Shown piece by piece: positions 5,921 to 29,745 of a DNA stretch of 64,000 nt. The translations under genes were made by a program, and so were the position numbers. Within the stretch, counting starts at the first letter, position 1. Every line of letters begins with the position of its first letter. The notes below the pieces were generated by a model that saw only the letters and a program-made list of their open reading frames with translations, made no database searches and had not been told where the DNA came from. Source of the DNA: a virus (lineage: Duplodnaviria > Heunggongvirae > Uroviricota > Caudoviricetes); IMG/VR virus record IMGVR_UViG_3300028797_000098, positions 38,321-102,320 of that record; one strand, given 5' to 3'.

Positions 5921-5995
5921 GGGTTTGTAGCTCAGTTTTGGCAGAGCGCCTGCCCTGCAAGCAGGAGGTCGCGGATTCGAATTCCGCCAGATCCA
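5921..5995 (+). tRNA. tRNA-Ala(TGC)
   Basis: Cloverleaf read by eye. G3:U70 present. Anticodon loop ccTGCaa. T-loop TTCGAAT. No encoded CCA. Confidence 0.7.
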
Positions 5996-6053
5996 CTAAC
6001 GCTTGGCTCGTGAAGCCTCGCAGCAGATTGACATTTCGGATGACTTTTATTAT

Positions 6054-6129
6054 GGGCCATTAGCTCAGTTTTGGTAGAGCGCCTGCATGGCATGCAGGAG
6101 GTCATCGGTTCGAGTCCGATATCGGTCCA
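6054..6129 (+). tRNA. tRNA-Ala(GGC)
   Basis: Anticodon loop atGGCat. G3:U70 only if one nt bulges in the 3' acceptor strand. Confidence 0.55.
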
Positions 6130-6138
6130 GTACACTAT

Positions 6139-6214
6139 GGGTCATTAGCTCAGTTTTGGTAGAGCACTTCGTTCGCATCGAAGAGGTCGTCGGTTCGAGC
6201 CCGACATCGATCCA
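6139..6214 (+). tRNA. tRNA-Ala(CGC)
   Basis: Anticodon loop ttCGCat. Same 3'-acceptor bulge as the previous tRNA. Confidence 0.55.
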
Positions 6215-6218
6215 CTAT

Positions 6219-6290
6219 GCTCCATTAGCTTAACTGGAAGAGCACCCGGCTACGAACCGGACGATTGGGATTCGACTTCCTGATGGAGCA
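6219..6290 (+). tRNA. tRNA-Arg(ACG)
   Basis: Perfect acceptor GCTCCAT/ATGGAGC. Anticodon loop ctACGaa. Confidence 0.65.
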
Positions 6291-6299
6291 CTACTTTAT

Positions 6300-6373
6300 G
6301 GGACCTTAGAATACGCTGGCTAGTTCATCGCCCTTTCACGGCGGGGAACCGGGATCGACACCCGGAGGTCCTA
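6300..6373 (+). tRNA. tRNA-Glu(TTC)
   Basis: Anticodon arm CGCCCTTTCACGGCGG identical to E. coli tRNA-Glu. Anticodon loop ctTTCac. Confidence 0.7.
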
Positions 6374-6445
6374 CTAAATGGATTTTGGAGCAGTATCCAT
6401 CCGGCTTTGCCGGGAAGCAACCTAGGTTGCATCGTGCTCCACCAT

Positions 6446-6519
6446 CCTCATCTATATCAATTGGTTAGATAGCTACTCTGATAAGGTAGAGGTTCCTGAT
6501 TCGAGCTCAGGGGTGAGGA
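6446..6519 (+). tRNA. tRNA-Ile(GAT)
   Basis: Acceptor CCTCATC/GGTGAGG. Anticodon loop ctGATaa. T-loop TTCGAGC. Confidence 0.65.
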
Positions 6520-6523
6520 CTAT

Positions 6524-6596
6524 GGGTCTGTAGCTTAAGAGGAAGAGCGTCCGGTTTGCACCCGGTTGGTATGGTTTCGAGCACCATCAGTATCCA
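6524..6596 (+). tRNA. tRNA-Ala(TGC), second copy
   Basis: Anticodon loop ttTGCac. G3:U70 with a 1-nt bulge in the 3' acceptor strand. Confidence 0.5.
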
Positions 6597-6613
6597 CGAT
6601 TTTAATTCTATAT

Positions 6614-6686
6614 GCACCATTAGCTCAGTTGGTAGAGCAGTTGCCTCTTAAGCATCGGGTCCAAGGTCCGAGTCCTTGATGGTGCA
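6614..6686 (+). tRNA. tRNA-Lys(CTT)
   Basis: Perfect acceptor GCACCAT/ATGGTGC. Anticodon loop ctCTTaa. Confidence 0.65.
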
Positions 6687-6698
6687 CGAAGAAATTAT

Positions 6699-6773
6699 TG
6701 CGGTGTAGCTCAGTCCGGTCAGAGCAGCGGAATCATAATCCGTTGGTCGAAGGTTCAAATCCTTCTTCCGCAA
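6699..6773 (+). tRNA. tRNA-Met or Ile2 (CAT)
   Basis: U1:A72. Anticodon loop atCATaa. T-loop TTCAAAT. Confidence 0.6.
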
Positions 6774-6886
6774 CGATGCAGCCCGGCAGTTAAAGAATGC
6801 CGGTCCCGACAAAGATAAGGTCGGTCGGTATAAAGCGCCGAAACAACATAAGAACCTAAAGCACCGGGGGCTGCGTTAAACATTTT

Positions 6887-6960
6887 GGGGGCGTGGTGAA
6901 GAGGCTCAACACAGCGGTCTGTCTAACCGCCATTCGCGGGTTCGAACCCCGCCGCTCTCG
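6887..6960 (+). tRNA. tRNA-Asp(GTC)
   Basis: Anticodon arm GCGGT-ctGTCta-ACCGC. Acceptor with two G:U pairs. T-loop TTCGAAC. Confidence 0.55.
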
Positions 6961-6964
6961 TTAT

Positions 6965-7039
6965 ACTCGGTTAGCTCAGTTGGTCCAGAGCGGCTGCCTT
7001 ACAAGCAGCGGGTCAGCGGTTCGACTCCGTTATCGAGTA
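6965..7039 (+). tRNA. tRNA-Val(TAC)
   Basis: Anticodon loop ctTACaa. D-loop agttggtcca. Confidence 0.65.
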
Positions 7040-7048
7040 CGAAATTAT

Positions 7049-7120
7049 AGGGATTTAGGACAGTGGCTAGTCTAGCGCTCTCCAAAAGCGTCTACGGGAG
7101 TTCGAGTCTCTCAGTCCCTG
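7049..7120 (+). tRNA. tRNA-Trp(CCA)
   Basis: Anticodon loop ctCCAaa. T-loop TTCGAGT. Confidence 0.65.
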
Positions 7121-7132
7121 CGAAATTTTTAT

Positions 7133-7215
7133 GGGTGTGCCGAAGAGTTGGAGATCTTCTTCGGTCTGTAAAACCGACGGCTACGCCTTTGATGGTCCGA
7201 ATCCATCCACACCCA
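7133..7215 (+). tRNA. tRNA-Tyr(GTA), class II
   Basis: Perfect acceptor GGGTGTG/CACACCC. Anticodon loop ctGTAaa. 13-nt variable arm. Confidence 0.7.
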
Positions 7216-7226
7216 CTATTCTTTAT

Positions 7227-7299
7227 TCCACCTTAGCTCAGTAGGTAGAGCGGGCGACTGTTAATCGCCTGGTCCCACGTTCGAGTCGTGGAGGTGGAG
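7227..7299 (+). tRNA. tRNA-Asn(GTT)
   Basis: Acceptor TCCACCT/AGGTGGA. Anticodon loop ctGTTaa. Confidence 0.7.
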
Positions 7300-7306
7300 C
7301 TAATAT

Positions 7307-7382
7307 TGCCGATTAGCCAAGCGGTAAGGCGCCGCGCTCTGAACGCGGGATTCTTTCGGTGGTTCGATCCCATCATCGGCAA
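7307..7382 (+). tRNA. tRNA-Gln(CTG)
   Basis: U1:A72. Anticodon loop ctCTGaa. Unusually long 9-nt variable region. Confidence 0.5.
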
Positions 7383-7393
7383 CTAAATTTTAT

Positions 7394-7464
7394 GCACCTA
7401 TGTTGTAGTGGTAGCAAACGACCTTGCCATGGTTGAAGCTCCGGATCGTACCCGGATAGGTGCT
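7394..7464 (+). tRNA. tRNA-Gly(GCC)
   Basis: Perfect acceptor GCACCTA/TAGGTGC. Anticodon loop ttGCCat. Confidence 0.7.
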
Positions 7465-7468
7465 CTAT

Positions 7469-7553
7469 CTCGTCGTGGGGGAATTTGGTAGACCCGCCAG
7501 CTTGAGGGGTTGGTGTTGAAATACACGTGGTGGTTCGAGACCACTCGACGAGA
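7469..7553 (+). tRNA. tRNA-Leu(GAG), class II
   Basis: Anticodon loop ttGAGgg. Long variable arm. Confidence 0.6.
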
Positions 7554-7566
7554 CTAACTTTAACAA

Positions 7567-7651
7567 CGCCCAGTGATGGAATTGGGTAGACAATGCGGAC
7601 TTAAAATCCGCAGCGAGTATTCGCGTGCCGGTTCGATGCCGGTCTGGGCGA
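7567..7651 (+). tRNA. tRNA-Leu(TAA), class II
   Basis: Perfect acceptor CGCCCAG/CTGGGCG. Anticodon loop ctTAAaa. Variable-arm stem GCGA/TCGC. Confidence 0.6.
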
Positions 7652-7725
7652 CTACAAGGGACAATGAATATGAAACGAAAATACAAACGATTATGATGGT
7701 GACGACTGCCAATTCAGTCGTGTCG

Positions 7726-7798
7726 GCTCCATTAACTCAGAAGATAGAGTACCGCCCTTTTAAGGCGGGAGTCGAGATGGCGGAATTCTCATGGAGCA
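7726..7798 (+). tRNA. tRNA-Lys(TTT)
   Basis: Perfect acceptor GCTCCAT/ATGGAGC. Anticodon loop ctTTTaa. Non-canonical T-loop GGCGGAA. Confidence 0.5.
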
Positions 7799-7805
7799 CT
7801 ATAAT

Positions 7806-7876
7806 GCACCTATGGTGTAGCGGTAACACGGCAGTCTTCCAAACTGCACTCGCCAGTTCGATTCTGACTAGGTGCT
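7806..7876 (+). tRNA. tRNA-Gly(TCC)
   Basis: Same acceptor as tRNA-Gly(GCC). Anticodon loop ctTCCaa. Confidence 0.65.
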
Positions 7877-7885
7877 TTATTATAC

Positions 7886-7967
7886 CGATCTGTGGCGGAA
7901 AGCATACGCAACGCACTCAAAATGCGTCGTCCGAAAGGAATTGTGGGTTCGTGTCCCACCAGATCGA
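7886..7967 (+). tRNA. tRNA-Leu(CAA), class II
   Basis: Perfect acceptor CGATCTG/CAGATCG. Anticodon loop ctCAAaa. Long variable arm. Confidence 0.6.
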
Positions 7968-7971
7968 CTAT

Positions 7972-8056
7972 CGGCATGTGGCGTAACTGGTAGCCGCGCT
8001 GCGTTCAGGGCGCAGTGTACATTTGTACGTGATGGGTTCGAATCCCTCTGTGCCGA
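7972..8056 (+). tRNA. tRNA-Leu(CAG), class II
   Basis: Anticodon loop ttCAGgg. Variable-arm hairpin GTACA/TGTAC. Weak T-stem. Confidence 0.5.
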
Positions 8057-8061
8057 CTTAT

Positions 8062-8133
8062 GGCCCCTTAGACCAGCGGTTAAGTCACAGGATTCTCATT
8101 CCTGGCACCCGAGTTCGAGCCTCGGAGGGGCTA
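8062..8133 (+). tRNA. tRNA-Glu(CTC)
   Basis: Anticodon loop ttCTCat. T-arm CCGAG-TTCGAGC-CTCGG. Confidence 0.6.
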
Positions 8134-8137
8134 CTAT

Positions 8138-8210
8138 TGGGCCGTGGTGCAATTGGTAGCACGCAAGATTTTGAGTCTTGATGTTGTTGGTTCAAGTCCA
8201 GCCAGCTCAA
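8138..8210 (+). tRNA. tRNA-Gln(TTG)
   Basis: U1:A72. Anticodon arm CAAGA-ttTTGag-TCTTG. Confidence 0.6.
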
Positions 8211-8213
8211 TTC

Positions 8214-8296
8214 CCCGAGGTGGCGGAATGGTAGACGCGCCTGCCTTAGGAGCAGGTGCCCGGAAGGGCGTGCAGGTTCGAGTCCTGTCCTCGGGA
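8214..8296 (+). tRNA. tRNA-Leu(TAG), class II
   Basis: Perfect acceptor CCCGAGG/CCTCGGG. Anticodon loop ctTAGga. Long variable arm. Confidence 0.6.
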
Positions 8297-8305
8297 TAAT
8301 GATAT

Positions 8306-8380
8306 GCGCTCTTAGCCAAGCCTGGTCTAAGGCAAGTGGTTGCAACCCACTGATCGGCGGTCCGAATCCGTCAGAGCGCT
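8306..8380 (+). tRNA. tRNA-Cys(GCA)
   Basis: Perfect acceptor GCGCTCT/AGAGCGC. Anticodon loop ttGCAac. Confidence 0.65.
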
Positions 8381-8394
8381 CGAAAGATTTTTAT

Positions 8395-8467
8395 GGGGCT
8401 GTAGCTCAGTTGGTAGAGCGGCAGGTTGAAGCCCTGCGCGTCGGAGGTTCGACTCCTCCCGGTCCCA
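8395..8467 (+). tRNA. tRNA-Phe(GAA)
   Basis: Canonical GTAGCTCAGTTGGTAGAGC D-arm. Anticodon loop ttGAAgc. Confidence 0.7.
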
Positions 8468-8473
8468 CTATTT

Positions 8474-8561
8474 GGAAATGTCCCATAATTGGTTATTGGC
8501 CCTCCTTGGAAAGGAGCGTGGTGGTGAAAGCTGCATGAAGGTTCGAGTCCTCCCATTTCCG
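8474..8561 (+). tRNA. tRNA-Ser(GGA), class II
   Basis: Perfect acceptor GGAAATG/CATTTCC. Anticodon loop ttGGAaa. Long variable arm. Confidence 0.55.
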
Positions 8562-8568
8562 CGAATTT

Positions 8569-8655
8569 GGAAGCGTAGACCTAATTGGTAAGGCCCCCGG
8601 CCCGAACCCGGTGGTGAGGAAGTTCCTCATGTAGGTTCAAGTCCTGCCGCTTCCG
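8569..8655 (+). tRNA. tRNA-Ser(CGA), class II
   Basis: Perfect acceptor GGAAGCG/CGCTTCC. Long variable arm. Anticodon reading CGA is tentative. Confidence 0.45.
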
Positions 8656-8659
8656 CTAT

Positions 8660-8743
8660 GGAAGCGCACGAGATTGGCGACTCAAGCGGACTTGAAATCC
8701 GTGGTTCCGCAAGGGCTTGGGGGTTCGACTCCCTCCGCTTCCG
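8660..8743 (+). tRNA. tRNA-Ser(TGA), class II
   Basis: Same acceptor as the previous tRNA. Anticodon loop ctTGAaa as in E. coli tRNA-Ser. Confidence 0.55.
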
Positions 8744-8752
8744 CGAAAGTAT

Positions 8753-8825
8753 TCCGACATAGCTCAATTGGTAGAGCAGTTCATTCGTAATGAACCGGTT
8801 GCTCGTTCGACCCGAGCTGTCGGAG
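8753..8825 (+). tRNA. tRNA-Thr(CGT)
   Basis: Perfect acceptor TCCGACA/TGTCGGA. Anticodon loop ttCGTaa. Confidence 0.65.
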
Positions 8826-8829
8826 CTAT

Positions 8830-8918
8830 GGAGAGGTAGCCTAATTGGTAAGGCAGGGGCTTGCTAAGCCCCCGTGGCCCTCAAAAGCTGCTTGCAGGTT
8901 CGAACCCTGTCCTCTCCT
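8830..8918 (+). tRNA. tRNA-Ser(GCT), class II
   Basis: Perfect acceptor GGAGAGG/CCTCTCC. Anticodon loop ttGCTaa. Long variable arm. Confidence 0.55.
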
Positions 8919-8924
8919 CTACAT

Positions 8925-8998
8925 GGTGTCAGTAGCTCAATCGGTGGAGCCCTGGTTTGTGGAACCAGCTGTTGCAAGTTCAAGCCTTGTCTGATACC
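8925..8998 (+). tRNA. tRNA-His(GTG) with encoded G-1
   Basis: Extra 5' G opposite discriminator C. Anticodon loop ttGTGga. Confidence 0.65.
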
Positions 8999-9046
8999 CT
9001 AAGTCATCTGAAATGTCGCGGATTTATTCAAGCAAAAGGATACAAC

Positions 9047-9376
9047 ATGATTACGGTAGCACAGATCAACGAATTGCGCAAGGCGACCCAGGTGAGCATG
9101 CTTCTATGTAAGCAGGCCCTGGAAGCGACCGGTGGCGATTTCGATGCCGCCAAGGAATGGCTCAGGGGCCAGGGCGGCGAGGTCGCCGGTGGCCCTTCCG
9201 AGTTCGGCGTCACCCTTTTCGCCGATGGCGCCGTCAATCAGCATGGTGTCACCGATGTCTTCACCTATTCCGACGGACATTCCACCGTGGACATCCGCGG
9301 TTATAGCGGTACGACCCCTTCTACCGTATGGGCCGATTTCAGGCACCAGCTCGTATTGAGACCGGCCAAGGCCTAG
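9047..9376 (+). CDS. EF-Ts N-terminal (UBA-like) domain protein
   Basis: AAAGGA SD then ATG. MITVAQINELRKATQVSMLLCKQALEATGGDFDAAKEWLRGQG resembles the EF-Tu-binding N-terminus of EF-Ts. The remainder is unrelated. Confidence 0.5.
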   Translation: MITVAQINELRKATQVSMLLCKQALEATGGDFDAAKEWLRGQGGEVAGGPSEFGVTLFADGAVNQHGVTDVFTYSDGHSTVDIRGYSGTTPSTVWADFRHQLVLRPAKA

Positions 9377-9383
9377 TCTTTCA

Positions 9384-9459
9384 GCCGGCGTAGCTCAATG
9401 GACTTCAGAGCACTCGACTTCTAATCGACAGGTTGCCAGTTCGACCCTGGCCGTCGGCA
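9384..9459 (+). tRNA. tRNA-Arg(TCT)
   Basis: Anticodon loop ctTCTaa. T-arm GCCAG-TTCGACC-CTGGC. Followed by TTTTTT. Confidence 0.6.
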
Positions 9460-9505
9460 TTTTTTGTTCATATTTTGTGAATATCTGTTGCCAACATGTG
9501 AAAAT

Positions 9506-9557: not shown

Positions 9558-9788
9558 ATGAAGAAGAACGCTGTTGCTTCCGCCACGAAGACTGTTGCAG
9601 ACAAGGAATCTCAGGCAACTATCAAGAAGCTCACTGCTGAAAATGCAAAGCTCACGAAGTCCCTCAAGTCCGCTGTCGCCAAGGCTGACAAGGCTGCTTC
9701 CGCATCTGCCGCTAAGCTTGCAAAGGCTAACGACAAGATTGCAAAGTTGCAGGAAACTGTCGCAGCTCTCAAGGGCAAGAAGAAGTAA
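9558..9788 (+). CDS. small Lys/Ala-rich coiled-coil (histone-H1-like) protein
   Basis: AAAGGATTGAAAA then ATG. 76 aa, about 45% Ala+Lys. Confidence 0.5.
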   Translation: MKKNAVASATKTVADKESQATIKKLTAENAKLTKSLKSAVAKADKAASASAAKLAKANDKIAKLQETVAALKGKKK

Positions 9789-9875: not shown

Positions 9876-10547
9876 ATGGAACAAGGAACAAGACTTTACA
9901 TCAATATTACCAACCGCTGCAATACGGACTGCCCGTTTTGCTGCATGTACTCCGGAACGGGAAATACTATCGACATGGATTTCGATGTGTTCCGTCGCAT
10001 CATAAATGAATGCCATGGCGACTTCGAGATTCAGTTTGAGGGCGGTGAACCCTTGATCCACAAGAATTTCTACCTATTCCTCGAATATGCCATCTCGACT
10101 GGCCGTTGCAAGAAGGTGAATATCCTGACGAACGGCATCGTGCTCGGGAAACACCTGCCTCGCCTGGTAAGTGTGTACAAGTGGTATGACATTCCCTTTG
10201 AAATCAAGGTATCGGTGAACTACTGGCTTATCAGGAAGCATGAAAACCATATCAAGCTGATTGCCGACTATGTGTTCGCCACCGAATACATGCCGAACTT
10301 CAATATTGTCCTGAATACCCGCAAGCGGCATAACGATGAGTGGATTGACGAGGAAATCAAGAATGCCGGGATGGAGGCCATTAACCACTCATTTTACCTT
10401 CAGAGTTATGGTAAGATGACTGGAAGCGACTATGATGGGGTGAAGATTGTCCAGAACATTGAAAACTGGCAGATTTACTCTGTAGATGGGCTGTGTTTCC
10501 ATCAGGACCTGGTTGCCCGTTCCGAACATGAGAGGAATCTATCGTGA
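9876..10547 (+). CDS. radical SAM protein, paralog 1 (MoaA/PqqE-like core)
   Basis: CNTDCPFCC CxxxCxxC motif, FEGGEPLIH, ILTNG. Confidence 0.7.
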   Translation: MEQGTRLYINITNRCNTDCPFCCMYSGTGNTIDMDFDVFRRIINECHGDFEIQFEGGEPLIHKNFYLFLEYAISTGRCKKVNILTNGIVLGKHLPRLVSVYKWYDIPFEIKVSVNYWLIRKHENHIKLIADYVFATEYMPNFNIVLNTRKRHNDEWIDEEIKNAGMEAINHSFYLQSYGKMTGSDYDGVKIVQNIENWQIYSVDGLCFHQDLVARSEHERNLS

Positions 10548-11506
10548 ATACCATCAAGTTTGCTCCATACAATGACTTCGTGACCGAACAGCACGATGTC
10601 GAGCATGCCTCGGTGGACACCGTTAAGGTGGGTGAAACTGAGTACAGGTTCTACAACCCCTGCAACCTGAACGTGTTCATCACGAATACGTGTCAGAACG
10701 CATGCGACTTCTGCATCAACAAGGGGCAGACGGACCAGTTCCGCATGGGTGACACTACATATTACGAGGACTTGGAGAAGGGTCTGGAAAAGCTGTCCGG
10801 TGTGAAGCTGGAAGCGACCATCACAGGCGGGGAACCTACTCTTCTCCCGAGACGCCTGGTCGAGACAGTTCGTATCCTGACCAAGCACGGGGTGCATGAA
10901 CGCACCGTGTCTACCACAGGCATCGGACTCCTTGAAAAGTACGAGGGGAAGACCGTCTTCCAGCACCTAATCGAGAATGGGTACACCCACAATATCTCGA
11001 TTAGCCGCATGGCCGAGGACGAATGGGAGAATGACCGCATCATGATGGGCGAGAAGTATTCGTCCAGGCAGCGTAACATTGGAAACGACGAGCTTAGGCG
11101 CCTCGCGACCATCGCCAAGGCGAATGGGGTTCAGTTACGCACCAGTACCAATTTACTTGCCGGACATGTTGATTCGTTCAAGAAGATGCTTCAATTTGTC
11201 GATTTTCAGTATGGTAATGGTATCGAAAGCTGTCTGTTCCGTGAGCTCGAAGGAAAGATACAGAAAATGTGGACGCCGATTGACTGGATTGCCGATACCG
11301 TGCGTATCATTAAGGATTTTAAATATGTCAAGACGGTGAACGGCATGTTCTATGACATAGAACAGTATCTGTACACTTCGCAGGCAACTGGGATGGAGTA
11401 CATTGTCAAGGTTTACAAGAACCATGTGGTCGATGCCGACATCATTGGTTCGCTTTCATTTAATCACGGTGTCATCCGAAAAGGATTTCATGGAGAAGAA
11501 ATATGA
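10544..11506 (+). CDS. radical SAM protein, paralog 2
   Basis: CQNACDFC, ITGGEPTLL, TTGIG. ATGA overlap with the upstream gene. Confidence 0.7.
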   Translation: MNTIKFAPYNDFVTEQHDVEHASVDTVKVGETEYRFYNPCNLNVFITNTCQNACDFCINKGQTDQFRMGDTTYYEDLEKGLEKLSGVKLEATITGGEPTLLPRRLVETVRILTKHGVHERTVSTTGIGLLEKYEGKTVFQHLIENGYTHNISISRMAEDEWENDRIMMGEKYSSRQRNIGNDELRRLATIAKANGVQLRTSTNLLAGHVDSFKKMLQFVDFQYGNGIESCLFRELEGKIQKMWTPIDWIADTVRIIKDFKYVKTVNGMFYDIEQYLYTSQATGMEYIVKVYKNHVVDADIIGSLSFNHGVIRKGFHGEEI

Positions 11507-12627
11507 TTAAAGTGGGTGCAGAAAGAGAAATTCGCTGGCAGCCTGAACTTAGAGAAGAACGCCAGAAGAATTACGATATTACACAATACGAGAGCATTCA
11601 TCACAAGTTTGCTACTGGTGATTTTGATGTCTACAAGAACTTCAACTTCAGTATCTTCATCAGCGACTACTGCAACGCGGACTGCAAGTTCTGTGTTGCA
11701 CAGCTCCGCTATGCCAACAAGGGGCTGATGTACCAGAAGGAGAAGCTGCCGGATAACCTGTGGCTGACCCGCTGCCGTGAAGTTCTTGAAATGATCCGTC
11801 CCCTCAACCCGAGCATTTCCATTACGGGCGGTGAACCGACTATGTCCAAGAAGCTCATTCCGGTTCTTGAAATGGTGAACGAGCTTGGTTTCCGCAAGCG
11901 CACCATCACGACCAACGGTTCGCACCTCTTTGACAAGGTGGGCAACAAGATGATTATTGACCATCTTATTGATAACGGATGGAATCACTTGAACATTTCC
12001 CGCCCGGCAATCACCGACGAGACTGCGAAACGCCTCATGCGCTTCAATAACGAGGAAGGTTTCTGTTCCAATGAAATGATGCGTGACATCATCGACATTA
12101 CGAACCATTCCGACATGAAACACCGCATTTCCTGCCTCCTCTTGAAGGAGGAAGTGAACTCCGTTGAAAAGATGAAGGAGTATTTGGACACCTATATCGA
12201 CATGGGCGCCAACAATTTCATCTTCCGCGAGCTCATGGACTACGACACGACCGCAATCAACCTGGAAAAGACCAAGTATTGTGTGGACAACAAGGTCAAG
12301 CTGAACGATATCTGGGCCAAGATTGACAATTACCCTGAATTCGAGAAGTACCTGAACATCCTCGGCTACTATTACTATGTGGAAATCTACAAGTACCGTG
12401 GCGCGACGGTCGCCTCCGAGGGCGCTAACATGGTCCAGCAGGGTCTCGAAGTGAAGAAGCACCCGAACCGTGTCTACGAGGCCGTGTTCCATCCGAATGG
12501 AAACCTCTGCGCATCCTGGATTGACAAGGAACGCATCCTTGACCCGTATTACATTGAGCATAAGATCGTCAAACGCCGTTTTGGCGATACTGCTAACTCG
12601 GATGCCAACCTCAAAGTGGGGAAATAG
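11503..12627 (+). CDS. radical SAM protein, paralog 3
   Basis: CNADCKFC, ITGGEPTM, TTNGSHL. Clearly paralogous to 10544-11506. Confidence 0.7.
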   Translation: MIKVGAEREIRWQPELREERQKNYDITQYESIHHKFATGDFDVYKNFNFSIFISDYCNADCKFCVAQLRYANKGLMYQKEKLPDNLWLTRCREVLEMIRPLNPSISITGGEPTMSKKLIPVLEMVNELGFRKRTITTNGSHLFDKVGNKMIIDHLIDNGWNHLNISRPAITDETAKRLMRFNNEEGFCSNEMMRDIIDITNHSDMKHRISCLLLKEEVNSVEKMKEYLDTYIDMGANNFIFRELMDYDTTAINLEKTKYCVDNKVKLNDIWAKIDNYPEFEKYLNILGYYYYVEIYKYRGATVASEGANMVQQGLEVKKHPNRVYEAVFHPNGNLCASWIDKERILDPYYIEHKIVKRRFGDTANSDANLKVGK

Positions 12628-12628
12628 C

Positions 12629-13348
12629 ATGAAAATCGGTATCATTTGTGGAAATATCGGCTCTGGAAAGAGCAGTGTGGCCGAAGAACTCAGGAAGATG
12701 GGTTACCCGGTCATCAACACGGACGACCTGATGAAGGTTATCTACAAGAGCAACCCTAGCGTGTACGGCACTGTCACCTCCATCTGGGGCCAGGATTCAA
12801 TCGACATGTTCGGTTCCCTGTCCCAGGAAGTGCGCGACCTCGCCTTGAAGGACGAGACCGTATATGATTTCCTCATGAACCTTGTCCAGTACCCGCTGCG
12901 TTCTGCGCTTGGGAAGATATTCTGCAATTTCACCTTTGACCGGGCGTATAACGACAAGACGATCTTCATCGAGAGCGCCGTCATGTGCAAGTGGATGTAC
13001 GAATGGGTCAACCCAGCGCGTACTATCGACCATGTATTCCGCATCACCGTGCCGAATACCGACGAGCGCCTTTACCGCGTGGTGAACCGCTATGCCCGCC
13101 GCAATCGAATCGAGACGGAATGCACCGGTTTCAGTGTGCTTCCTGATGAGGAATACAAGAAGAACAAGCTGCTGCTGGCCGATTTCAGGAAGATGGTCGC
13201 TCTTACGGATGACATGCAGACTAACCTGTATAACAAGTGGCTTGGTTCCAACGATCCGCATTTCCCGGAACCTATCGTGCTTGTGAACGAGGGACGCGAA
13301 GACGTGAAGCGGATTGCCAATCGTATTGTTGAAATTGTTTCAAAGTAA
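12629..13348 (+). CDS. P-loop kinase, dephospho-CoA kinase (CoaE)-like
   Basis: MKIGIICGNIGSGKSSVAEELRKMGYPVINTDDL matches the CoaE Walker A and VIDAD context. Starts 1 nt after the upstream stop. Confidence 0.55.
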   Translation: MKIGIICGNIGSGKSSVAEELRKMGYPVINTDDLMKVIYKSNPSVYGTVTSIWGQDSIDMFGSLSQEVRDLALKDETVYDFLMNLVQYPLRSALGKIFCNFTFDRAYNDKTIFIESAVMCKWMYEWVNPARTIDHVFRITVPNTDERLYRVVNRYARRNRIETECTGFSVLPDEEYKKNKLLLADFRKMVALTDDMQTNLYNKWLGSNDPHFPEPIVLVNEGREDVKRIANRIVEIVSK

Positions 13349-17526: not shown

Positions 17527-18762
17527 ATGAAGATTGAAGAAAAGTACATTTCCGAGACAGTCAAGAAGGGTATCGGCTTGCTCGCCGAAATCCATAAGCG
17601 CGGGCACGAGGCATACATTGCCGGTGGCGCCGTGCGCGACCTCGTAATTCGCCAGTTGCACATGGTGTCGGGTTCCGAAAATGAAGTTCCCGTGCATGAC
17701 GTGGACATCGCGACCAACATGCCCATCGAGGACCTGAAACTTGCCTTCCGCTGCGACTCCAATAACGGGGAAGCGCATGGCACGATCCTGGTCCATTATG
17801 ATGGCCTGGTGTTTGAGGTGACCCAGTTCCGCGTCGATGGCAACTATTCCGACGGTCGCCACCCGGATTCGGTGAATTTCACCAAGTCCTTCAAGGAAGA
17901 CTGCGCCCGGCGTGACTTTACCATTAACGCTATGGGTCTGGACAAGGACCTCAATGTCATCGACTATTTCGGCGGTATTGACGACCTGGTATTCCGTCGT
18001 CTCCGTGCAGTGGGCAACCCGTATGACCGCATGACCGAGGATTCCCTCCGTATCATTCGCGGTATGCGATTTGCCGCCCGTTTCGGTTTCGTGATTGACG
18101 ACCTTACCAAGTTGGCCATGCGCAGCCGCCTGCACCACATCAAGAGCGTGGCGATGGAGCGCATCCATGACGAATTGCACAAGTGTGCCGAGTATGGCGT
18201 GCTGCCTTTCGTGAACATGATTGGGTACCTGTCCGAGTATGGCATCGGATCAATTTTCCAGGATGTCGGCTTCTGCTTTGACCGTCAGCGCATGCTCGTG
18301 GAATCCTTGGTACGCGGAAACGTGGATGCCGATACAATCATGTCGGTATTCATCTGCATGCTGCCGAAGAAGTCCATGGAATGGCTCCGCTGCACCCGTA
18401 AGGAAATCCGCATGGCCGAGCGCATCAGGGATGGCCTGATTGGCATCATGTCCGGAAAGTTCGGTCTTGCCGATGAGCAGTTGCTCTATTCCGTTGAACT
18501 GGCCGCTTCCCCGGAATTCAGGCTCATTACCAACCTGTACCGCGAACTGAACCCGTATGGTACCGCCCTGGGTGATGGTGCGGCGACGATATGCGATGTC
18601 ATTGCGCGTTGCAGGAAGGGCGTACCCGAATACGGAAAGCAGGTTGCCGCGGAAGGTATCCAGGAAGGACCGGAATTTGGCAAGCGCCTGCGGGAAGTCA
18701 TCCTCGCCGACTACAAGAGAATCAAGGATGAGTGGGACAAATCAATGAACAGGATGTGGTAA
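17527..18762 (+). CDS. cca: tRNA nucleotidyltransferase (CCA-adding enzyme)
   Basis: Class II head domain GGAVRDLVI...DVDIAT, then RIIRGMRFAARFGF. Confidence 0.75.
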   Translation: MKIEEKYISETVKKGIGLLAEIHKRGHEAYIAGGAVRDLVIRQLHMVSGSENEVPVHDVDIATNMPIEDLKLAFRCDSNNGEAHGTILVHYDGLVFEVTQFRVDGNYSDGRHPDSVNFTKSFKEDCARRDFTINAMGLDKDLNVIDYFGGIDDLVFRRLRAVGNPYDRMTEDSLRIIRGMRFAARFGFVIDDLTKLAMRSRLHHIKSVAMERIHDELHKCAEYGVLPFVNMIGYLSEYGIGSIFQDVGFCFDRQRMLVESLVRGNVDADTIMSVFICMLPKKSMEWLRCTRKEIRMAERIRDGLIGIMSGKFGLADEQLLYSVELAASPEFRLITNLYRELNPYGTALGDGAATICDVIARCRKGVPEYGKQVAAEGIQEGPEFGKRLREVILADYKRIKDEWDKSMNRMW

Positions 18763-20800: not shown

Positions 20801-20810
20801 CTATATTTTG
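20795..20810 (+). promoter_or_regulatory. promoter element TTTTTGCTATATTTTG
   Basis: 3 nt before the ATG at 20814. Confidence 0.5.
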
Positions 20811-20813
20811 AAC

Positions 20814-22160
20814 ATGAACGATAATAGCGAAATTTTCAAGAATAACATCCCGGAACTCCCGCCGTTCTCGAAGGAACTCGAACGGTACTGGCAGGAACAG
20901 GTAACCAACGGTGCCATGTCCGAAACCGAGAAGAGGGTCCATGAAAAGGGTATCCTCCTCATCAAGGTGGCCGCGGGTTCGCAGTCGTTCGGTCTTGCCA
21001 CCGAGACTTCCGATGTGGACATTCACGGTGTGTATATCCTGAAATGGAGCGAGCGCATCAAGCACGATGCCCCGAGCCAGATTGCCGACGAGAAGAACAA
21101 CGAGGTCTACTGGGACATCACGAAGTTCCTTACCGAGTTGAACTCCGCCAATCCCCAGGCCCTCGAAATGCTCTATGCTCCGAAGCATTGCGTATTTGTG
21201 GGCCAGTCTATCCTCGAAATCCTCCGAAAGAAATTTGACTTCCTCACCATGCGTTGTGACAAGTCGTTCTGCGAGTATGCCCGTGGCCAGGTTGACCGTG
21301 CGAAGGGCCTGAACAAGAAGGTATTCGATCCGCAGCCGGAGAGGCGCCCGCGTTTCGTCGATTTCATCTATGTCCTCGATGGCAACCTCGCCACTCCCCT
21401 CATGGAATGGATTAAGGCCAATTATCGCGGCAAGCCGGAAGAAGTCCAGCGTTGGTTCTCCATCGCCCGGATCGACCATGGCGATTGCATCTACGCGGTG
21501 TATTTCCAGAAGAAGCCGCTGTCCATCAGTATCCACAAATTCGTCCGGAAATGTCTCTCCAAGGTATTCAAGGGTGTCCGTCAGCTTCCCGAGCACAAGT
21601 GGCGTTGGGGCTATGGTGTCGTCCGTGACATCGAGCGCAGCGATGATATCCAACTCAACTCCATCCCAAAGGGTTTGAGCTCCGTTGCCCATATCTTCGT
21701 GAACCGCAACGACTTTGCACGTAAATGCAAGAAGTGGCACGAGTATTGGGATTGGGTCAAGTCCCGTAACGAGGAACGCTACAACACCACGTTGAAGCAT
21801 GGCCAAGGCTACGATGCGAAGAACATCATGCACTGTGTCCGTCTGCTCCTTACCGCTTACGGTATCGCCACCGAGCATACCGTCCCGGTCTACCGCGCTG
21901 ATAAGGATTTGTGCAACATGGTCTGTATGGATTACAACAAGCACCCGTACAGCAATGACCGCGATTTCCTCCTTGCAATCAAGAATGGTGACTGGACGTT
22001 TGACGACATCATCGACTATATCGGTGCACTTGGCAAGGAAGTTAACAAGGCTTTTGCCGCATCCGGATTAAAGGAAAAGGCCTATACGCCGGAAGAAATC
22101 GACGAGTTTGCAGTCGAACTCTCTAAAAATATCCTTCCGATGGAATGGAAGAATTTTTAA
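20814..22160 (+). CDS. Pol-beta-superfamily nucleotidyltransferase
   Basis: GSQSFGLATETSDVDIHGVY is the G[SG]x9-13Dx[DE] motif. ATG at 20814 preferred over the TTG at 20808 used by the track. Confidence 0.5.
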   Translation: MNDNSEIFKNNIPELPPFSKELERYWQEQVTNGAMSETEKRVHEKGILLIKVAAGSQSFGLATETSDVDIHGVYILKWSERIKHDAPSQIADEKNNEVYWDITKFLTELNSANPQALEMLYAPKHCVFVGQSILEILRKKFDFLTMRCDKSFCEYARGQVDRAKGLNKKVFDPQPERRPRFVDFIYVLDGNLATPLMEWIKANYRGKPEEVQRWFSIARIDHGDCIYAVYFQKKPLSISIHKFVRKCLSKVFKGVRQLPEHKWRWGYGVVRDIERSDDIQLNSIPKGLSSVAHIFVNRNDFARKCKKWHEYWDWVKSRNEERYNTTLKHGQGYDAKNIMHCVRLLLTAYGIATEHTVPVYRADKDLCNMVCMDYNKHPYSNDRDFLLAIKNGDWTFDDIIDYIGALGKEVNKAFAASGLKEKAYTPEEIDEFAVELSKNILPMEWKNF

Positions 22161-23278: not shown

Positions 23279-25801
23279 ATGCTACCGAACGAAACTGCAC
23301 ATGGTTCAGAAGGCGATGCCTACCGCTACACCAAGAAGGTCCTGATGGCCCTACCCAACAGGGGGCGGCTGCAGACTATCTATGAGGAAATTGCCCAGAA
23401 AAGGGGGATTTCTTCCTGGACCCGTGCAGCATACCAGGAGGTCCGTACCCACTTTTTCAGGGACGGACAGTGCAAGATCCGTTTCGCGCCGGGTGCCGCA
23501 AGAATTGCGTTTGGCGAATTGTCGCTTGGTACAGGTGATGAAGAACCGGGGCCGATTGGCCGTCTTCATGACATAATTCGCATTATTTCCATTGCCCATT
23601 CGAGTGAGTATGACCGTTATCTTGGTATTGACGGTAGACGCCCGTCATTCAAGGAACTTGATGAAATATATGGCCAGAGGATAGCCAAGCAATGGAGCGC
23701 GATGCGACGCATGCTCCGCAGACGGAAGTATGGACAGAGACGTTATGAGATAATCCCTCTTGATGAATTTGAAACGGCGAACAAATATGCCGAATACACC
23801 CAGCCGCATGTGTGGTGCCACCTCAATTCACAGAGCATGTTTGACCATTATCGGATGGCCAGTGCCGGGGATAAGAAGCTGCCGGTGAAACTTTACCTGG
23901 CCGTTCTTCCTGGTTTCGAGAATTTGACCGAAAGCGATGAACTGTATGGCGAATCCATGCTGGGTATCGACATCGGGCCCGGTGGCCGTCTAGTCCATGT
24001 GAATAACCGGTGGAACCATGCCCATGACAATGTGGATGTCCGCAAGGGCGACAACAAGTACGACGAGGTTGAACTTTCGGACTTGCTTGGTGGCCCATTC
24101 TTTGAACTATGCCCACCCTATGGGCATGATACATATCGTGAGCTGGCGGTCCGCATGCGCGAGGAGCGACTTACAAACAATGCCAAGGTGATTGCTGATA
24201 GGAAGAAGATTACTAAGAGTATATGCCTTGGCAAGAACCGCATTCGCCGGTCCGGAACATTCACTGACAAGAGGGATGGCAAGACCTACCGTACGGAGAC
24301 TATTGGAGGCAGGACGTGGATGGCCGAACCACTCAAGTACTCTCCAACGAAAATTCCGGAAATTCCGGCAAATCTGAAAAAACTGGAAACCATACTATGC
24401 CCCGTACGCCCGGAAATCAAGGTATTCCTTCCGATCCTGTGTGTTACCCGCACAGAAGAAGGACTGACATGTTCGATTGACTGGCAACATCCTGCCGATG
24501 CTGAGACGGCAAATGTCATAACGCATGAATGCAATGGCCGGGTTAATGATTCGGTGTATGTTCACCATGATATGCCGAATAACTATGTGGTAAAGACTTC
24601 CTCCAGATGCTATGTTAGTATGGGTGGCAACATAGATGTGTATGATGCGATATATAACGTGTTTCTTGAAGGGGTCAAGATAGGCGATACCATCATCGAT
24701 GGCTCTTTATTAGAGGACTTGTCGTCATGTCTTGATTTTGGCCAGGCTGACAACTACTGGGCACAAGTGCGTGATGAACGTGAGCGAACCGTGCGTGATG
24801 CACTGGAGAAAGCGAACCTCCCGCATGACGAGACGAGTGTTACAGTTGTTACCGATATGCTTGTTAAGGAATATACCAATGGCCGGGGTATTGGGGAGTT
24901 TAGGATAACCGACCAGGTAGGCAACTCCGGCACATATGGCCGAGCGTCACTTATATTATTGACCCATTCCAACACGCCGCATTCGCGTAACTATTTACAG
25001 TTTGGTAAGGCAAGGGAACTCGTCACATATAGATACAAGGCGGATGCTTTAACCCCGGAGACGGAAGCGATTATACGCGCTCTCAATCCGTCCATTACCG
25101 TCAGCGTGACGGCTGAAGATGGTTCGCGGGGTGTATTGTATTCGCATGCGGATATCAAGGAGACCATACCGGACGGCTGGCACTTGCCAACCATTGATGA
25201 CCTGTATCGCCTGTATTCGGCGTTGGGTGGAAAGGTTATTCGAAGCGGTGCTGGAAATTGCAACAAAATATGCTCCAATTCCTGGTCTAATGGCCGTGCG
25301 TTTACCATGTGCGGTGTCAGGATACCGAAACAATTACATAAGGATGATTCATATCCATCTCTGTATATTACGACTGACCAGGGAAGGTGCGACATAGTTC
25401 ACAGTAACGAGGATGAGGATGATGAAATCCGGGAAACTGGAAAGAGTGCGCCGGATATCATGCGGGACTTGATGGGGTTTGGTTCATTGGTTAAAATTGC
25501 TGGCCAAGACACCGGGTTTATTCAAAATTCAACATTTGGCAATGTGGCCCCGTTTGTGTCGCAGGAAGTATGTATCACGGACTTGCTTGACACTGATGGG
25601 AACGTGAAAACGCAGATTCATTGGTTTAGGTCGGCAAGGGTTGATCTTGTTGGCGACCAGCTCATAATGCACACTGAGACCGAACGGCAAGAAGAGAGAC
25701 TTATGGTCGGCGATGGGCAGTACATTACCGACGAGGGCTTCATACAGTACAACAAGTTTACAAACTCCCGCAGACGGTTTTTGTTCCTGGTGAAGGACTA
25801 G
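23279..25801 (+). CDS. large protein with a Fib_succ_major (TIGR02145-like) domain
   Basis: FTDKRDGKTYRTETIGGRTWMAEPL and PDGWHLPTIDDLYRLYSALGG match the Fibrobacter succinogenes major paralogous domain consensus. Confidence 0.6.
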   Translation: MLPNETAHGSEGDAYRYTKKVLMALPNRGRLQTIYEEIAQKRGISSWTRAAYQEVRTHFFRDGQCKIRFAPGAARIAFGELSLGTGDEEPGPIGRLHDIIRIISIAHSSEYDRYLGIDGRRPSFKELDEIYGQRIAKQWSAMRRMLRRRKYGQRRYEIIPLDEFETANKYAEYTQPHVWCHLNSQSMFDHYRMASAGDKKLPVKLYLAVLPGFENLTESDELYGESMLGIDIGPGGRLVHVNNRWNHAHDNVDVRKGDNKYDEVELSDLLGGPFFELCPPYGHDTYRELAVRMREERLTNNAKVIADRKKITKSICLGKNRIRRSGTFTDKRDGKTYRTETIGGRTWMAEPLKYSPTKIPEIPANLKKLETILCPVRPEIKVFLPILCVTRTEEGLTCSIDWQHPADAETANVITHECNGRVNDSVYVHHDMPNNYVVKTSSRCYVSMGGNIDVYDAIYNVFLEGVKIGDTIIDGSLLEDLSSCLDFGQADNYWAQVRDERERTVRDALEKANLPHDETSVTVVTDMLVKEYTNGRGIGEFRITDQVGNSGTYGRASLILLTHSNTPHSRNYLQFGKARELVTYRYKADALTPETEAIIRALNPSITVSVTAEDGSRGVLYSHADIKETIPDGWHLPTIDDLYRLYSALGGKVIRSGAGNCNKICSNSWSNGRAFTMCGVRIPKQLHKDDSYPSLYITTDQGRCDIVHSNEDEDDEIRETGKSAPDIMRDLMGFGSLVKIAGQDTGFIQNSTFGNVAPFVSQEVCITDLLDTDGNVKTQIHWFRSARVDLVGDQLIMHTETERQEERLMVGDGQYITDEGFIQYNKFTNSRRRFLFLVKD

Positions 25802-26938: not shown

Positions 26939-28018
26939 ATGGAACACAAGATTGCAGTTTATGGCGGCGCATTTGACCCGCTTACCGTTGCCCATGAGGC
27001 AATTATTCAGTATCTTTTGGAAAACTACCCGGAAGTCCATGTCTATGTGACCGACAATGATGAAAAACAGTACAATGCATCATTCCAGGACCGTTATGGC
27101 ATGTTGATTGCCCGGTTTCCGAAACTGAACATCCATAAGCAGTCGGTTCGTACCTTCGATAATCTCGAAACAGTGTATGGAACATATGTTTCCGGATCCG
27201 AGAACAAGAATCCGGACATTGACCTCATTATCGGCATGGATGAGCTTGAAGCCCTTCTGGCCGGCAAGTGGAAAGATTCTGACAAGCTCATCGACAAGTA
27301 CAGCATCCGTGTATTCAACCGTGGAAAAAACTTCAATTTCCATACGGAACTTGGTACCCGAGGCGATATCAACCCTATTTTCGTAAATGTTCCCGATGTG
27401 TCGTCCACAGCTGTCCGTAGTGACATGCTCATGAACCCCATGTATGGGGGAATGTCGGTTTCGCCGCAAGTTCTTGGGTATATTTTCCAGCATGGATTAT
27501 ATCACCAGGATAATCCGCTAATACATTGGAACACTGAACATCAGGAACTTGCCAACTACAAGCCAGGCGATTATCCAAAACCTTCGGTTACGGTGACTTC
27601 CGTGGTTATCAACAGCATTGGCGAACCTACCATTGGTCGAGAGGACCAGGTGCTTCTAGTGCGCCGCAAGCGCTGGCCGTTCGCTAACTACTGGTGTCTC
27701 CCTGGTGGCTTTACCAATCCGCATGAACCCATCGAGAATTGCAGCTGTCGTGAACTCCATGAGGAAACGGGGCTTGTACTCTACCCTAATCAGGTTCACC
27801 AATTGAAGGTGTATATCCCGGAAGACCCTCGCGAGAATGTTCCTGGACACTGGGCGTATGACGTGGGTGTCTATGTTCGTGGGATTTTCGGGGCAGTCAA
27901 GGGTGACGACGATGCTGCCGAGGCAGCATGGTTCCCGTTGAGCGTAGCCCGCAAGGCTCACTTGGCGTTCCACCATAACCAAATCCTTGAAGATTACATC
28001 AAGACGATCGGGGGATAG
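26939..28018 (+). CDS. nadM: bifunctional NMN adenylyltransferase / Nudix (ADP-ribose pyrophosphatase), NadM-Nudix type
   Basis: N-terminal AVYGGAFDPLTVAHEAII (H/TxGH nucleotidyltransferase motif). C-terminal Nudix box LPGGFTNPHEPIENCSCRELHEETG. Confidence 0.7.
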   Translation: MEHKIAVYGGAFDPLTVAHEAIIQYLLENYPEVHVYVTDNDEKQYNASFQDRYGMLIARFPKLNIHKQSVRTFDNLETVYGTYVSGSENKNPDIDLIIGMDELEALLAGKWKDSDKLIDKYSIRVFNRGKNFNFHTELGTRGDINPIFVNVPDVSSTAVRSDMLMNPMYGGMSVSPQVLGYIFQHGLYHQDNPLIHWNTEHQELANYKPGDYPKPSVTVTSVVINSIGEPTIGREDQVLLVRRKRWPFANYWCLPGGFTNPHEPIENCSCRELHEETGLVLYPNQVHQLKVYIPEDPRENVPGHWAYDVGVYVRGIFGAVKGDDDAAEAAWFPLSVARKAHLAFHHNQILEDYIKTIGG

Positions 28019-28439: not shown

Positions 28440-29745
28440 AAAAGTTTTTATAGATTGTTATAAACTTCTCTATGATAAGAGTTCTTGCCCGTCCTCCTAT
28501 CAAGGTTAGATTTTAAATGTCCACGGAATGCTGACGGGCAAATTAAGCGTTCTGTGGGCATTTGCTTATCTATGGTTGAATTGAAGACATACAAGTACAA
28601 GCTGTACAATCGAGATGCTCTAAGGTATCTCAACAATATACTTGTAGTTGCTGGACGGATATACAACCACTGCATTGCTCTGCACCGTCGGTACTACGGT
28701 ATCTATCATAAGATGCTTAATAAATACCAGTTGCAGAAGCACTTAACCAAACTGAAGAGACAATATCCAGAGTGGAATGAGGTTCCGTCGCAAGCCATTC
28801 AAGACATCACAGATAGGATAGACCGAGCATATCGGTTGTTCTTCTTGAACTTGAAGGCTGGAAAGAAGACCAATCCGCCTCACTTTCAGAAGACGGCTAA
28901 ATACCGTTCATTCACAACGAAGCAAGCTGGATATAAATTCCACGACTTTAACAGAGTTAAGATATGCAAGAAGGATTTTCCCTACTGGAACAGCAGGGAT
29001 TTTGATGGCAAGGTCAAGACCTTAACTGTCAAACGCAAGAGCAACGGATTCTACATATACATCGTCGTTGAGCAAGAATGTACACAGACAGAGTGGACTA
29101 AATCGGGTGAAATCGTTGGTTTCGACTTCAGTCTGCACGACTTCTTGGTTTCCTCTAACGGCGACGATTGTAGTATGCCTAAAATATTGCAGAAGAACCT
29201 CAAATCATTGAGAAACCTATCAGAAAAATACCGAAAGAGCAAGGGTAAGCGAGGTTCGCTGCGTACATTGCAGAAGCTACACGAGAAAGTAGCCAATCAG
29301 CGTTCCGATATGCACTGGAAGTTGGCTCGGCAGTTCTGCCGAGACTACGATGTTATGGTGTTTGAGACGCTAGACTTGGCCAACCTATCCAAGAAGTACA
29401 AGAAGTCTATGTACGATTTCGGGTTCAATGCTTTCTTGAGTATTCTCGAATATGTAGCTCATAAGACTGGTAAGACCGTAATGTACGCCGATAAGTGGTA
29501 TCCATCGTCGCAATTATGCTCCGAATGTGGTTATCAGAACCACGACCTAAAGGATGTATCTATCCGTCATTGGATATGTCCTAGCTGTGGTGCGGAACAC
29601 GATAGGGATAGAAATGCCGCCCGTAACTTATGTAAGGTAGGGGCATCTACCTTTGGGACATGTTGCCCATCTGTGGCAACTCCCAGAATCCCACGACTTT
29701 AGTCGTGGGAGTATGTCAAGAAGAACTGAGCGGACAGCGTTTCAT
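28440..29745 (+). mobile_element. IS200/IS605-family tnpB-only element (IS1341-like); boundaries approximate
   Basis: Left-end hairpin TTGCCCGTC...GACGGGCAA (28485-28541). Right-end hairpin CCCACGACT-tt-AGTCGTGGG (29686-29706). No tnpA. Confidence 0.6.
28572..29702 (+). CDS. tnpB: TnpB (IS605 OrfB) RuvC-like RNA-guided nuclease
   Basis: N-terminus LKTYKYKLYNRDALRYLNN. C-terminal zinc finger CSECGYQNHD...CPSCGAEHDRDRNAARNL. Confidence 0.8.
   Translation: MVELKTYKYKLYNRDALRYLNNILVVAGRIYNHCIALHRRYYGIYHKMLNKYQLQKHLTKLKRQYPEWNEVPSQAIQDITDRIDRAYRLFFLNLKAGKKTNPPHFQKTAKYRSFTTKQAGYKFHDFNRVKICKKDFPYWNSRDFDGKVKTLTVKRKSNGFYIYIVVEQECTQTEWTKSGEIVGFDFSLHDFLVSSNGDDCSMPKILQKNLKSLRNLSEKYRKSKGKRGSLRTLQKLHEKVANQRSDMHWKLARQFCRDYDVMVFETLDLANLSKKYKKSMYDFGFNAFLSILEYVAHKTGKTVMYADKWYPSSQLCSECGYQNHDLKDVSIRHWICPSCGAEHDRDRNAARNLCKVGASTFGTCCPSVATPRIPRL

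Follow-up and report, generated by a model that had tools for sequence, protein, structure and literature searches.

What is a protein with the head of a bacterial translation factor doing among the tRNA genes of a phage? The question is raised by an open reading frame (ORF) of 109 codons in a 64,000-nucleotide stretch of a caudovirus genome (IMG/VR record IMGVR_UViG_3300028797_000098, positions 38,321 to 102,320; hereafter the window). The ORF occupies the second-to-last slot of an array of 34 tRNA genes, near the array's 3′ end. An earlier note on this DNA, written from the sequence alone, had read the product as the N-terminal domain of elongation factor Ts (EF-Ts) without its core, followed by an unrelated C-terminal half, and had suggested a translation-hijacking factor, for example one that modulates EF-Tu during infection.

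Domain architecture of the protein

The N-terminal domain of the protein has the three-helix UBA fold, and its homology to EF-Ts is established by three lines of comparison. Residues 2–43 match positions 4–45 of the NCBIfam model TIGR00116 (the tsf equivalog) with E=5.5e-10, and the best-matching solved EF-Ts chain is PDB 7vmx (E=1e-5). In profile comparison with hhalign, the family profile aligns with residues 3–46 of Escherichia coli EF-Ts at a probability of 95.7% (E=1e-8) and with a nine-sequence EF-Ts profile at 99.1% (E=2e-18; residues 2–48 against 4–50), the identity being 38–39% in both cases. Higher identities, 60–67% over residues 2–40/43, are reached by full-length EF-Ts proteins (278–312 residues) of Geobacteraceae and others in a scan of 185,579 species genomes, the search patterns of which favour sequences of this kind. 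A word-index search with the N-terminal domain alone gave just four fragments and was uninformative. The Pfam scores are lower: EF-Ts_N (PF25025) gives E=1.2e-5 and 25.6 bits against a gathering threshold of 33.2, UBA-TS-N (PF00627) gives 20.1 bits against 22.4, and family representatives score 28.9 and 20.6 bits, respectively. Despite these sub-threshold scores, the TIGR00116 match, the profile–profile alignments and the fold comparison settle the homology, so that the resemblance proposed in the earlier note is borne out by significant matches.

The similarity is far stronger to EF-Ts than to ubiquitin-binding UBA domains (E=5.5e-10 versus 5.6e-4). Ubiquitin-binding UBA domains hold ubiquitin by a hydrophobic MGF/MGY-type loop between helices 1 and 2. 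The corresponding loop of the phage protein reads T-Q-V-S-M-L, is invariant in the family and aligns with the TGAGMM loop of EF-Ts; no MGF/MGY-type loop is present.

The C-terminal half contains neither of the two EF-Ts core subdomains (N and C) nor the TDFV motif (Asp80/Phe81). Its hhalign profile reaches a probability of 0.2% against E. coli EF-Ts and 0.1% against the EF-Ts profile, which agrees with the claim that the core is missing. A diverged EF-Ts core was considered, as a local "TDVF" and a "GV..DG" stretch are suggestive, but it was rejected given the null hhalign result and the lack of conservation of the motif in the family. The description of this half as Gly- and Thr-rich and unrelated to EF-Ts also stands (eight Gly and seven Thr in 63 residues); it undersold a conserved, folded beta domain. 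AlphaFold2, run on a 22-sequence alignment, gives the full protein a mean predicted local distance difference test score (pLDDT) of 86, and the C-terminal domain modelled alone reaches a pLDDT of 90.5 with a predicted template modelling score (pTM) of 0.76. The C-terminal half is thus confidently predicted to be a small, family-specific beta sandwich, folded and distinct from a low-complexity tail. Conserved positions are F53, L57, D76-G77, D82-I83, G88, P91, W95, P106 and K108, and the beta domain must carry part of the function of the protein. Its first strand starts at residue 53, and both the linker length and this strand start match the spacing from the N-terminal domain found in EF-Ts.

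No sequence or fold relatives of the beta domain were found beyond its own family. Searched with a profile, 1.84 billion cluster representatives yielded two clusters of the same family and short, multi-stretch matches to repeat proteins (P0028–P0033), which we treated as noise or local beta-hairpin resemblance. Among the latter, the 116-residue metagenomic protein P0033 has three tandem units of about 25 residues (IQGHxGAYPRTLWCVSKDxMV) akin to the last two strands of the beta domain, and the secreted repeat protein P0029 (548 residues) has four copies of DGVVSVDIEDFDGTSFAWTS, akin to the DGVVSIDIRGFDGSSPRTMWGS stretch of one family clade. Such likenesses between beta hairpins could be coincidental or could reflect a shared module.

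Judged by its sequence, the protein is not an EF-Ts. The N-terminal feature of EF-Ts is there, the core is not, and the whole-protein TIGR00116 score of 38.9 bits lies under the curated cut-off of 104.05 bits. With bacterial and organellar EF-Ts (tsf; TIGR00116; 1EFU, 1AIP, 7VMX, 1XB2) the protein shares the three-helix N-terminal domain, the EF-Tu-contacting Arg and Lys and a similar linker length. In contrast to EF-Ts, it has 109 residues rather than about 280–310, it lacks the core subdomains N and C, the TDFV motif, the dimerisation/coiled-coil region and the C-terminal module, it bears an unrelated beta domain, and its gene lies in a phage tRNA array instead of beside rpsB.

Conservation and setting in the tRNA array

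In a collection of 5.8 billion proteins, 25 relatives were found, all metagenomic and none with a functional name. The full-length members measure 108–114 residues and are encoded on contigs of up to 464 kb. IMG/VR contributes five further loci, on contigs that include ones of 224, 348 and 424 kb, and no PHROGs family was matched. Mean pairwise identity is 84% over residues 1–43 versus 50% from residue 50 to the end. Between the window and three relatives, the proportion of synonymous differences (pS) is 0.47–0.97, with synonymous sites largely saturated, and the non-synonymous differences amount to 0.025–0.18 for the N-terminal domain, against 0.32–0.45 for the beta domain. As the non-synonymous divergence (dN) is well below the synonymous one (dS) in each of the two domains, and synonymous sites have largely reached saturation, the whole gene is under purifying selection. 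The EF-Ts-derived domain is exceptionally constrained, as would be expected of a domain whose partner hardly varies.

The association with tRNA genes is equally persistent. Outside the window, ten loci were examined, at identities of 55–95%, and every one of them has the gene inside a tRNA array. The loci examined for array context (L001, L003, L006, L008, L010 and L015–L020) represent at least seven distinct contigs, some pairs of which have identical arrays. The gene is followed by tRNA-Arg(TCT), no more than about 10 nt away, in two of the three clades, and the upstream tRNA differs (His, Leu or Glu). A purine-rich Shine–Dalgarno-like site (AAAGGA/AGAGG type, AAAGGA in most) occupies the equivalent position in 10/10 homologous loci inspected. 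The ORF between tRNA-His and tRNA-Arg, with its good Shine–Dalgarno sequence, had been placed exactly in the earlier note; ARAGORN and Rfam agree on the flanking tRNAs. A longer frame of 139 residues starting at TTG 8957 was ruled out, as it runs into tRNA-His and the homologues all begin with M-I/V/A-T-V behind the conserved Shine–Dalgarno site.

Judged by consensus matches only, the stretch from tRNA-His to the ATG shows no sigma-70-like promoter, and a hairpin with a T-run beyond the ORF is a possible end of the tRNA–ORF transcription unit (Table 1). Taken together, these two observations suggest that the mRNA of the ORF is probably cut out of the tRNA precursor.

The array total of 34 depends on a tRNA-Lys(UUU) at 7726–7798, which was missed by ARAGORN and found by Rfam only (44.8 bits). 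It fills an apparent 150-nt gap in the array and aligns with the tRNA-Lys(ttt) of relatives L006 and L015. In other related arrays, ARAGORN reports tRNAs with irregular anticodon loops (L001/L003, 6887–6963; L008/L010, 7683–7755; L018, 2233–2307), the anticodons being the four-base "gtta" and "ggaa" and the two-base "ta". These could be frameshift-suppressor-like tRNAs, pseudo-tRNAs or miscalls.

Table 1 Features of the ORF, its product and the surrounding tRNA array (window coordinates)
Feature	Position	Strand	Details
Phage tRNA gene array	5921–9459	+	33 tRNAs by ARAGORN, 34 counting the Rfam-only tRNA-Lys(UUU)
tRNA-His(GTG)	8926–8999	+	ARAGORN and Rfam, 55.1 bits; 47 nt from the ORF start
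Shine–Dalgarno-like AAAGGA	9035–9040	+	6 nt ahead of the ATG
Coding sequence, EF-Ts N-domain plus beta domain	9047–9376	+	ATG start, 109 codons plus stop
Three-helix TS-N/UBA-like domain, residues 1–46	9047–9184	+	Helices 4–14, 18–27 and 32–46; homologous to EF-Ts residues 3–50
Gly-rich linker GEVAGG, residues 44–49	9176–9193	+	Predicted, pLDDT <50
Six-stranded beta domain, residues 50–109	9194–9373	+	Family-specific; strands span 53–106 in the model
tRNA-Arg(TCT)	9384–9459	+	ARAGORN and Rfam; begins 7 nt past the ORF stop codon
Terminator-like hairpin and T-run	9441–9467	+	Overlaps the 3′ end of tRNA-Arg; consensus match only

Candidate roles at EF-Tu

In the Mycobacterium tuberculosis complex, EF-Ts R13 bonds with EF-Tu P114/E155 and K24 bridges D144/D145; the R13A exchange breaks the complex, and both residues are among the few conserved across EF-Ts (PMC9529903). 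In the alignment with 7vmx, R13 and K24 correspond to R11 and K22 of the phage protein, both of which are invariant in the family. Moreover, the loop between helices 1 and 2 retains the Met-Met/Leu pair as M18-L19. On balance, these sequence features incline us to the view that the protein docks host EF-Tu. The role we favour is that of an EF-Tu-docking modulator or shield, belonging to a phage tRNA/translation-maintenance module. The invariant Arg and Lys, the very strong purifying selection on the N-terminal domain, and also the conserved embedding in tRNA arrays beside tRNA- and RNA-maintenance genes all make an EF-Tu-modulating role more plausible, and the translation-hijacking factor of the earlier note is a plausible description of it.

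In such a mechanism, the protein and the phage tRNAs would come from one transcript. The EF-Ts-descended domain of the protein would dock onto helix D of the G domain of host EF-Tu through the retained Arg and Lys, while the flexible Gly-rich linker, short and close in length to that of EF-Ts, would set the beta domain beside the G domain, at the place usually taken by the EF-Ts core. Since the TDFV/core machinery is missing, the protein would not act as a canonical exchange factor. It would instead occupy a site common to EF-Ts, ribosomal L7/L12 and helix-D-anchored toxins, and the most likely outcome would be that EF-Tu is tuned or shielded during infection. Helix D is reported as the site of both L7/L12 and the ADP-ribosyltransferase TreTu (PMC9825190).

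Several points weigh against this reading, in addition to the Pfam scores below the gathering thresholds. The TGAGM loop of EF-Ts is changed to TQVSM, with Q15 and S17 in place of Gly, followed by L20 in place of Asp and Q23 in place of Lys, and these replacements are invariant in the family. They may indicate a modified binding mode, an altered specificity or a different partner, and constitute the main internal caveat. The protein is also acidic (pI about 5.1–5.5), while descriptions of the EF-Ts interface give it a positive charge. Furthermore, an isolated N-terminal domain represents part of the EF-Ts/EF-Tu interface only and may have low affinity by itself, and a tight helix-D binder could compete with L7/L12 and thereby harm the translation of the phage itself.

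A narrower form of the docking idea, to which we assign a small chance, is an anti-defence factor, in which the EF-Ts head caps helix D of EF-Tu and the beta domain shields it from EF-Tu-directed immune effectors. The shielding idea comes from the finding that EF-Ts competes with the Salmonella Rhs toxin TreTu and so spares EF-Tu from ADP-ribosylation (PMC9825190). The effectors blocked would be helix-D-anchored ADP-ribosyltransferases like TreTu and tRNases scaffolded by EF-Tu:EF-Ts like CdiA-CT(EC869), a contact-dependent inhibition (CDI) toxin that cuts tRNA acceptor ends (PMC9071432). EF-Tu serves as target or co-factor for Lit, type IV Thoeris and Avs7 as well (PMC13581612). The protein, the tRNA array and the CCA-adding enzyme would then form one tRNA/EF-Tu protection module.

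Alternatively, the protein might be a minimal, non-canonical guanine nucleotide exchange factor, in which the N-terminal domain on helix D by itself loosens the guanine-base side of the pocket and the beta domain replaces the EF-Ts core, the purpose being faster EF-Tu recycling matched to the extra tRNA supply. The EF-Ts-like spacing of the linker and first strand (from residue 53) and the location among 34 tRNAs are in line with this, as is the report, at list level, of EF-G, EF-Tu, EF-Ts and L7/L12 genes in huge phages, where they presumably sustain elongation (Al-Shayeb et al. 2020, PMC7162821). Contacts with helix D have a part in exchange, at least as the work of Wieden et al. (2002) is relayed in PMC9825190. 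However, the beta domain has no detectable similarity to the EF-Ts core, there is no conserved TDFV-like Asp-Phe (the "TDVF" of the window is not conserved in the family), and the domain evolves fast, which a catalytic surface would not usually do when its target is as highly conserved as EF-Tu. Both the activity and its proposed purpose are doubtful.

It is similarly unlikely that EF-Ts ancestry is of historical relevance only and that the UBA-like fold now serves to bind something other than EF-Tu, such as a ubiquitin-like protein of a defence system, a phage protein or another copy of itself in homo-oligomerisation. The much stronger similarity to EF-Ts than to UBA domains speaks against it, as do the invariance of the Arg and Lys that contact EF-Tu and the conserved tRNA/translation context.

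Less probable still is a competitive antagonist of EF-Ts or of L7/L12 recruitment, a dominant-negative head that slows elongation in the host and so serves for shut-off or timing. A docking domain kept while the catalytic core is gone is the classic architecture of a dominant-negative fragment, and helix D is common to EF-Ts and L7/L12. The phage, however, invests heavily in translation: the window has 34 clustered tRNAs and encodes a CCA-adding enzyme, and relatives carry tmRNA and a PTH2-like gene. A gene expressed with the phage tRNAs that blocked EF-Tu recycling would impair the making of phage proteins just as much, and the conserved beta domain would also be left unexplained. Finally, a functionless ORF, either a decaying fragment of a captured host tsf or a chance frame in an inter-tRNA spacer, could be suspected from a short gene between tRNAs that is a partial copy of a cellular one, but is refuted by the set of 25 homologues of constant length on large contigs, the dN/dS pattern and the conserved Shine–Dalgarno site and start, and both domains are confidently predicted.

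Related systems, neighbouring genes and significance

Among phage proteins, the closest published case is gp247 of Caulobacter phage Colossus, a 98-residue "truncated EF-Ts" proposed to modulate host translation (PMC3556154). It is described with core subdomain N and the equivalent of F81, i.e. the catalytic piece, whereas the present family retains the N-terminal docking domain instead. Colossus gave no match in our tblastn search of phage GenBank records. Five of the eight matches in that search are full-length cellular EF-Ts, annotated tsf/EF-Ts or located beside rpsB, in unverified or contaminated "phage" records, and were discarded. Among those inspected (H4 and H7 were left out), the only genuine second case is LR745208.1, a 485-kb uncultured huge phage and one of those of Al-Shayeb et al. 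2020 (PMC7162821), which encodes a different protein of 75 residues (L013:2908-3132, 81596-81712) with a coiled-coil-like segment followed by an EF-Ts N-terminal domain (VTPEMVKELRKRTNVGILDCKRALEKCKGDVDAAEKVL). This protein has two close metagenomic homologues, and no tRNA lies within about 3 kb. Like the present family it contains the EF-Ts N-terminal domain only; unlike it, it carries a coiled coil rather than a beta domain, in a different domain order, and is located away from tRNAs.

The L7/L12 C-terminal domain and TreTu (PMC9825190) share the predicted helix-D docking surface and no homology, and are thus analogues by binding site only. With respect to gene organisation, a cellular parallel can be drawn. 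The E. coli thrU-tyrU-glyT-thrT-tufB operon puts tRNA genes and the gene for a component of the EF-Tu cycle on one transcript, from which the message is freed by tRNA processing. It is a cellular operon, and its protein product is EF-Tu, whereas the protein considered here is phage-encoded and a putative EF-Tu ligand. Our literature searches returned no description of this architecture, of its tRNA-array location or of a functional test, and no functional study of the EF-Ts-annotated genes of huge phages.

Neither EF-Tu nor an EF-Ts core was found in the window or the fetched related loci by tblastn with E. coli EF-Ts and EF-Tu, the N-terminal domain being the only match. A split or relocated EF-Ts is thereby ruled out locally, within the 64 kb covered of a genome that is likely >200 kb. 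A scan of IMG/VR with E. coli EF-Tu gave 80 loci, none of them on the three large contigs of this clade, a weak negative as the patterns are E. coli-specific. Five of the IMG/VR loci (L053, L056, L062, L065 and L070, on contigs of 223–533 kb) encode full-length EF-Tu homologues that are 58–69% identical to E. coli EF-Tu.

Directly after tRNA-Arg, the window encodes a coiled-coil-like, Lys/Ala-rich protein of 76 residues (9558–9788) with no Pfam match, the place of which is taken in L005–L007 by a gene for 81 residues. Three tandem radical-SAM genes (223, 320 and 374 residues) and then a CoaE/AAA_33-type kinase follow immediately downstream of the array (9876–13348). This block is kept in relatives L005–L007 and possibly represents a pathway that modifies tRNA or nucleotides. 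Further downstream, the window encodes a CCA-adding enzyme and an RlaP nucleotidyltransferase (17527–18762 and 20808–22160). In the related clade L008–L010, a PTH2-like peptidyl-tRNA hydrolase, a transfer-messenger RNA (tmRNA; tag ADHSMTYSVAA) and a TROVE/Ro60-like protein (6628–7197, 10574–10929 and 10960–12336) stand beside the homologous gene. The window additionally contains two genes of nicotinamide adenine dinucleotide (NAD) salvage, an NMNAT-like cytidylyltransferase–NUDIX fusion (26939–28018) and NAPRTase (34964–36358), together with TnpB (28485–29702; OrfB_IS605 / Cas12f-like TNB) and an NAD-dependent ligase. The NAD genes agree with the NAD+ synthesis theme reported for gastrointestinal jumbo phages (PMC11662467).

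Three observations bear on the host. An 840-residue protein of the window (23279–25801) has a Fibrobacter "Fib_succ_major" domain, at a score under the gathering threshold. Among the 185,579 species genomes, the sole full-length family member (L020, NZ_JBGUHR010000018.1) is on a 13.8-kb contig binned in a metagenome-assembled genome of a ruminal Fibrobacter, and the sample names point to ruminant gut metagenomes. The element is therefore a rumen jumbo phage, with Fibrobacter as its probable host.

Phages and bacteria contend over EF-Tu time and again: it is cleaved by Lit and type IV Thoeris and co-opted by Avs7 (PMC13581612). It is further ADP-ribosylated by Rhs toxins (PMC9825190) and used as a scaffold by CDI tRNases (PMC9071432), and it is recruited by Qbeta replicase. 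Our literature searches returned no DNA-phage protein aimed at the site on EF-Tu where EF-Ts and L7/L12 dock. EF-Ts-like genes in huge phages have been described before; what is new here is the domain partner of such a translation-factor derivative and its fixed place in the tRNA array. If binding proves weak or the effect unmeasurable, the family would be an ordinary case in which part of a cellular translation gene has been retained by a phage. It offers a compact candidate of 109 residues, with two separable domains and with R11 and K22 as obvious sites for mutation. Its fixed place among the tRNA genes would tie the debated purpose of phage tRNA arrays to direct manipulation of the tRNA carrier.
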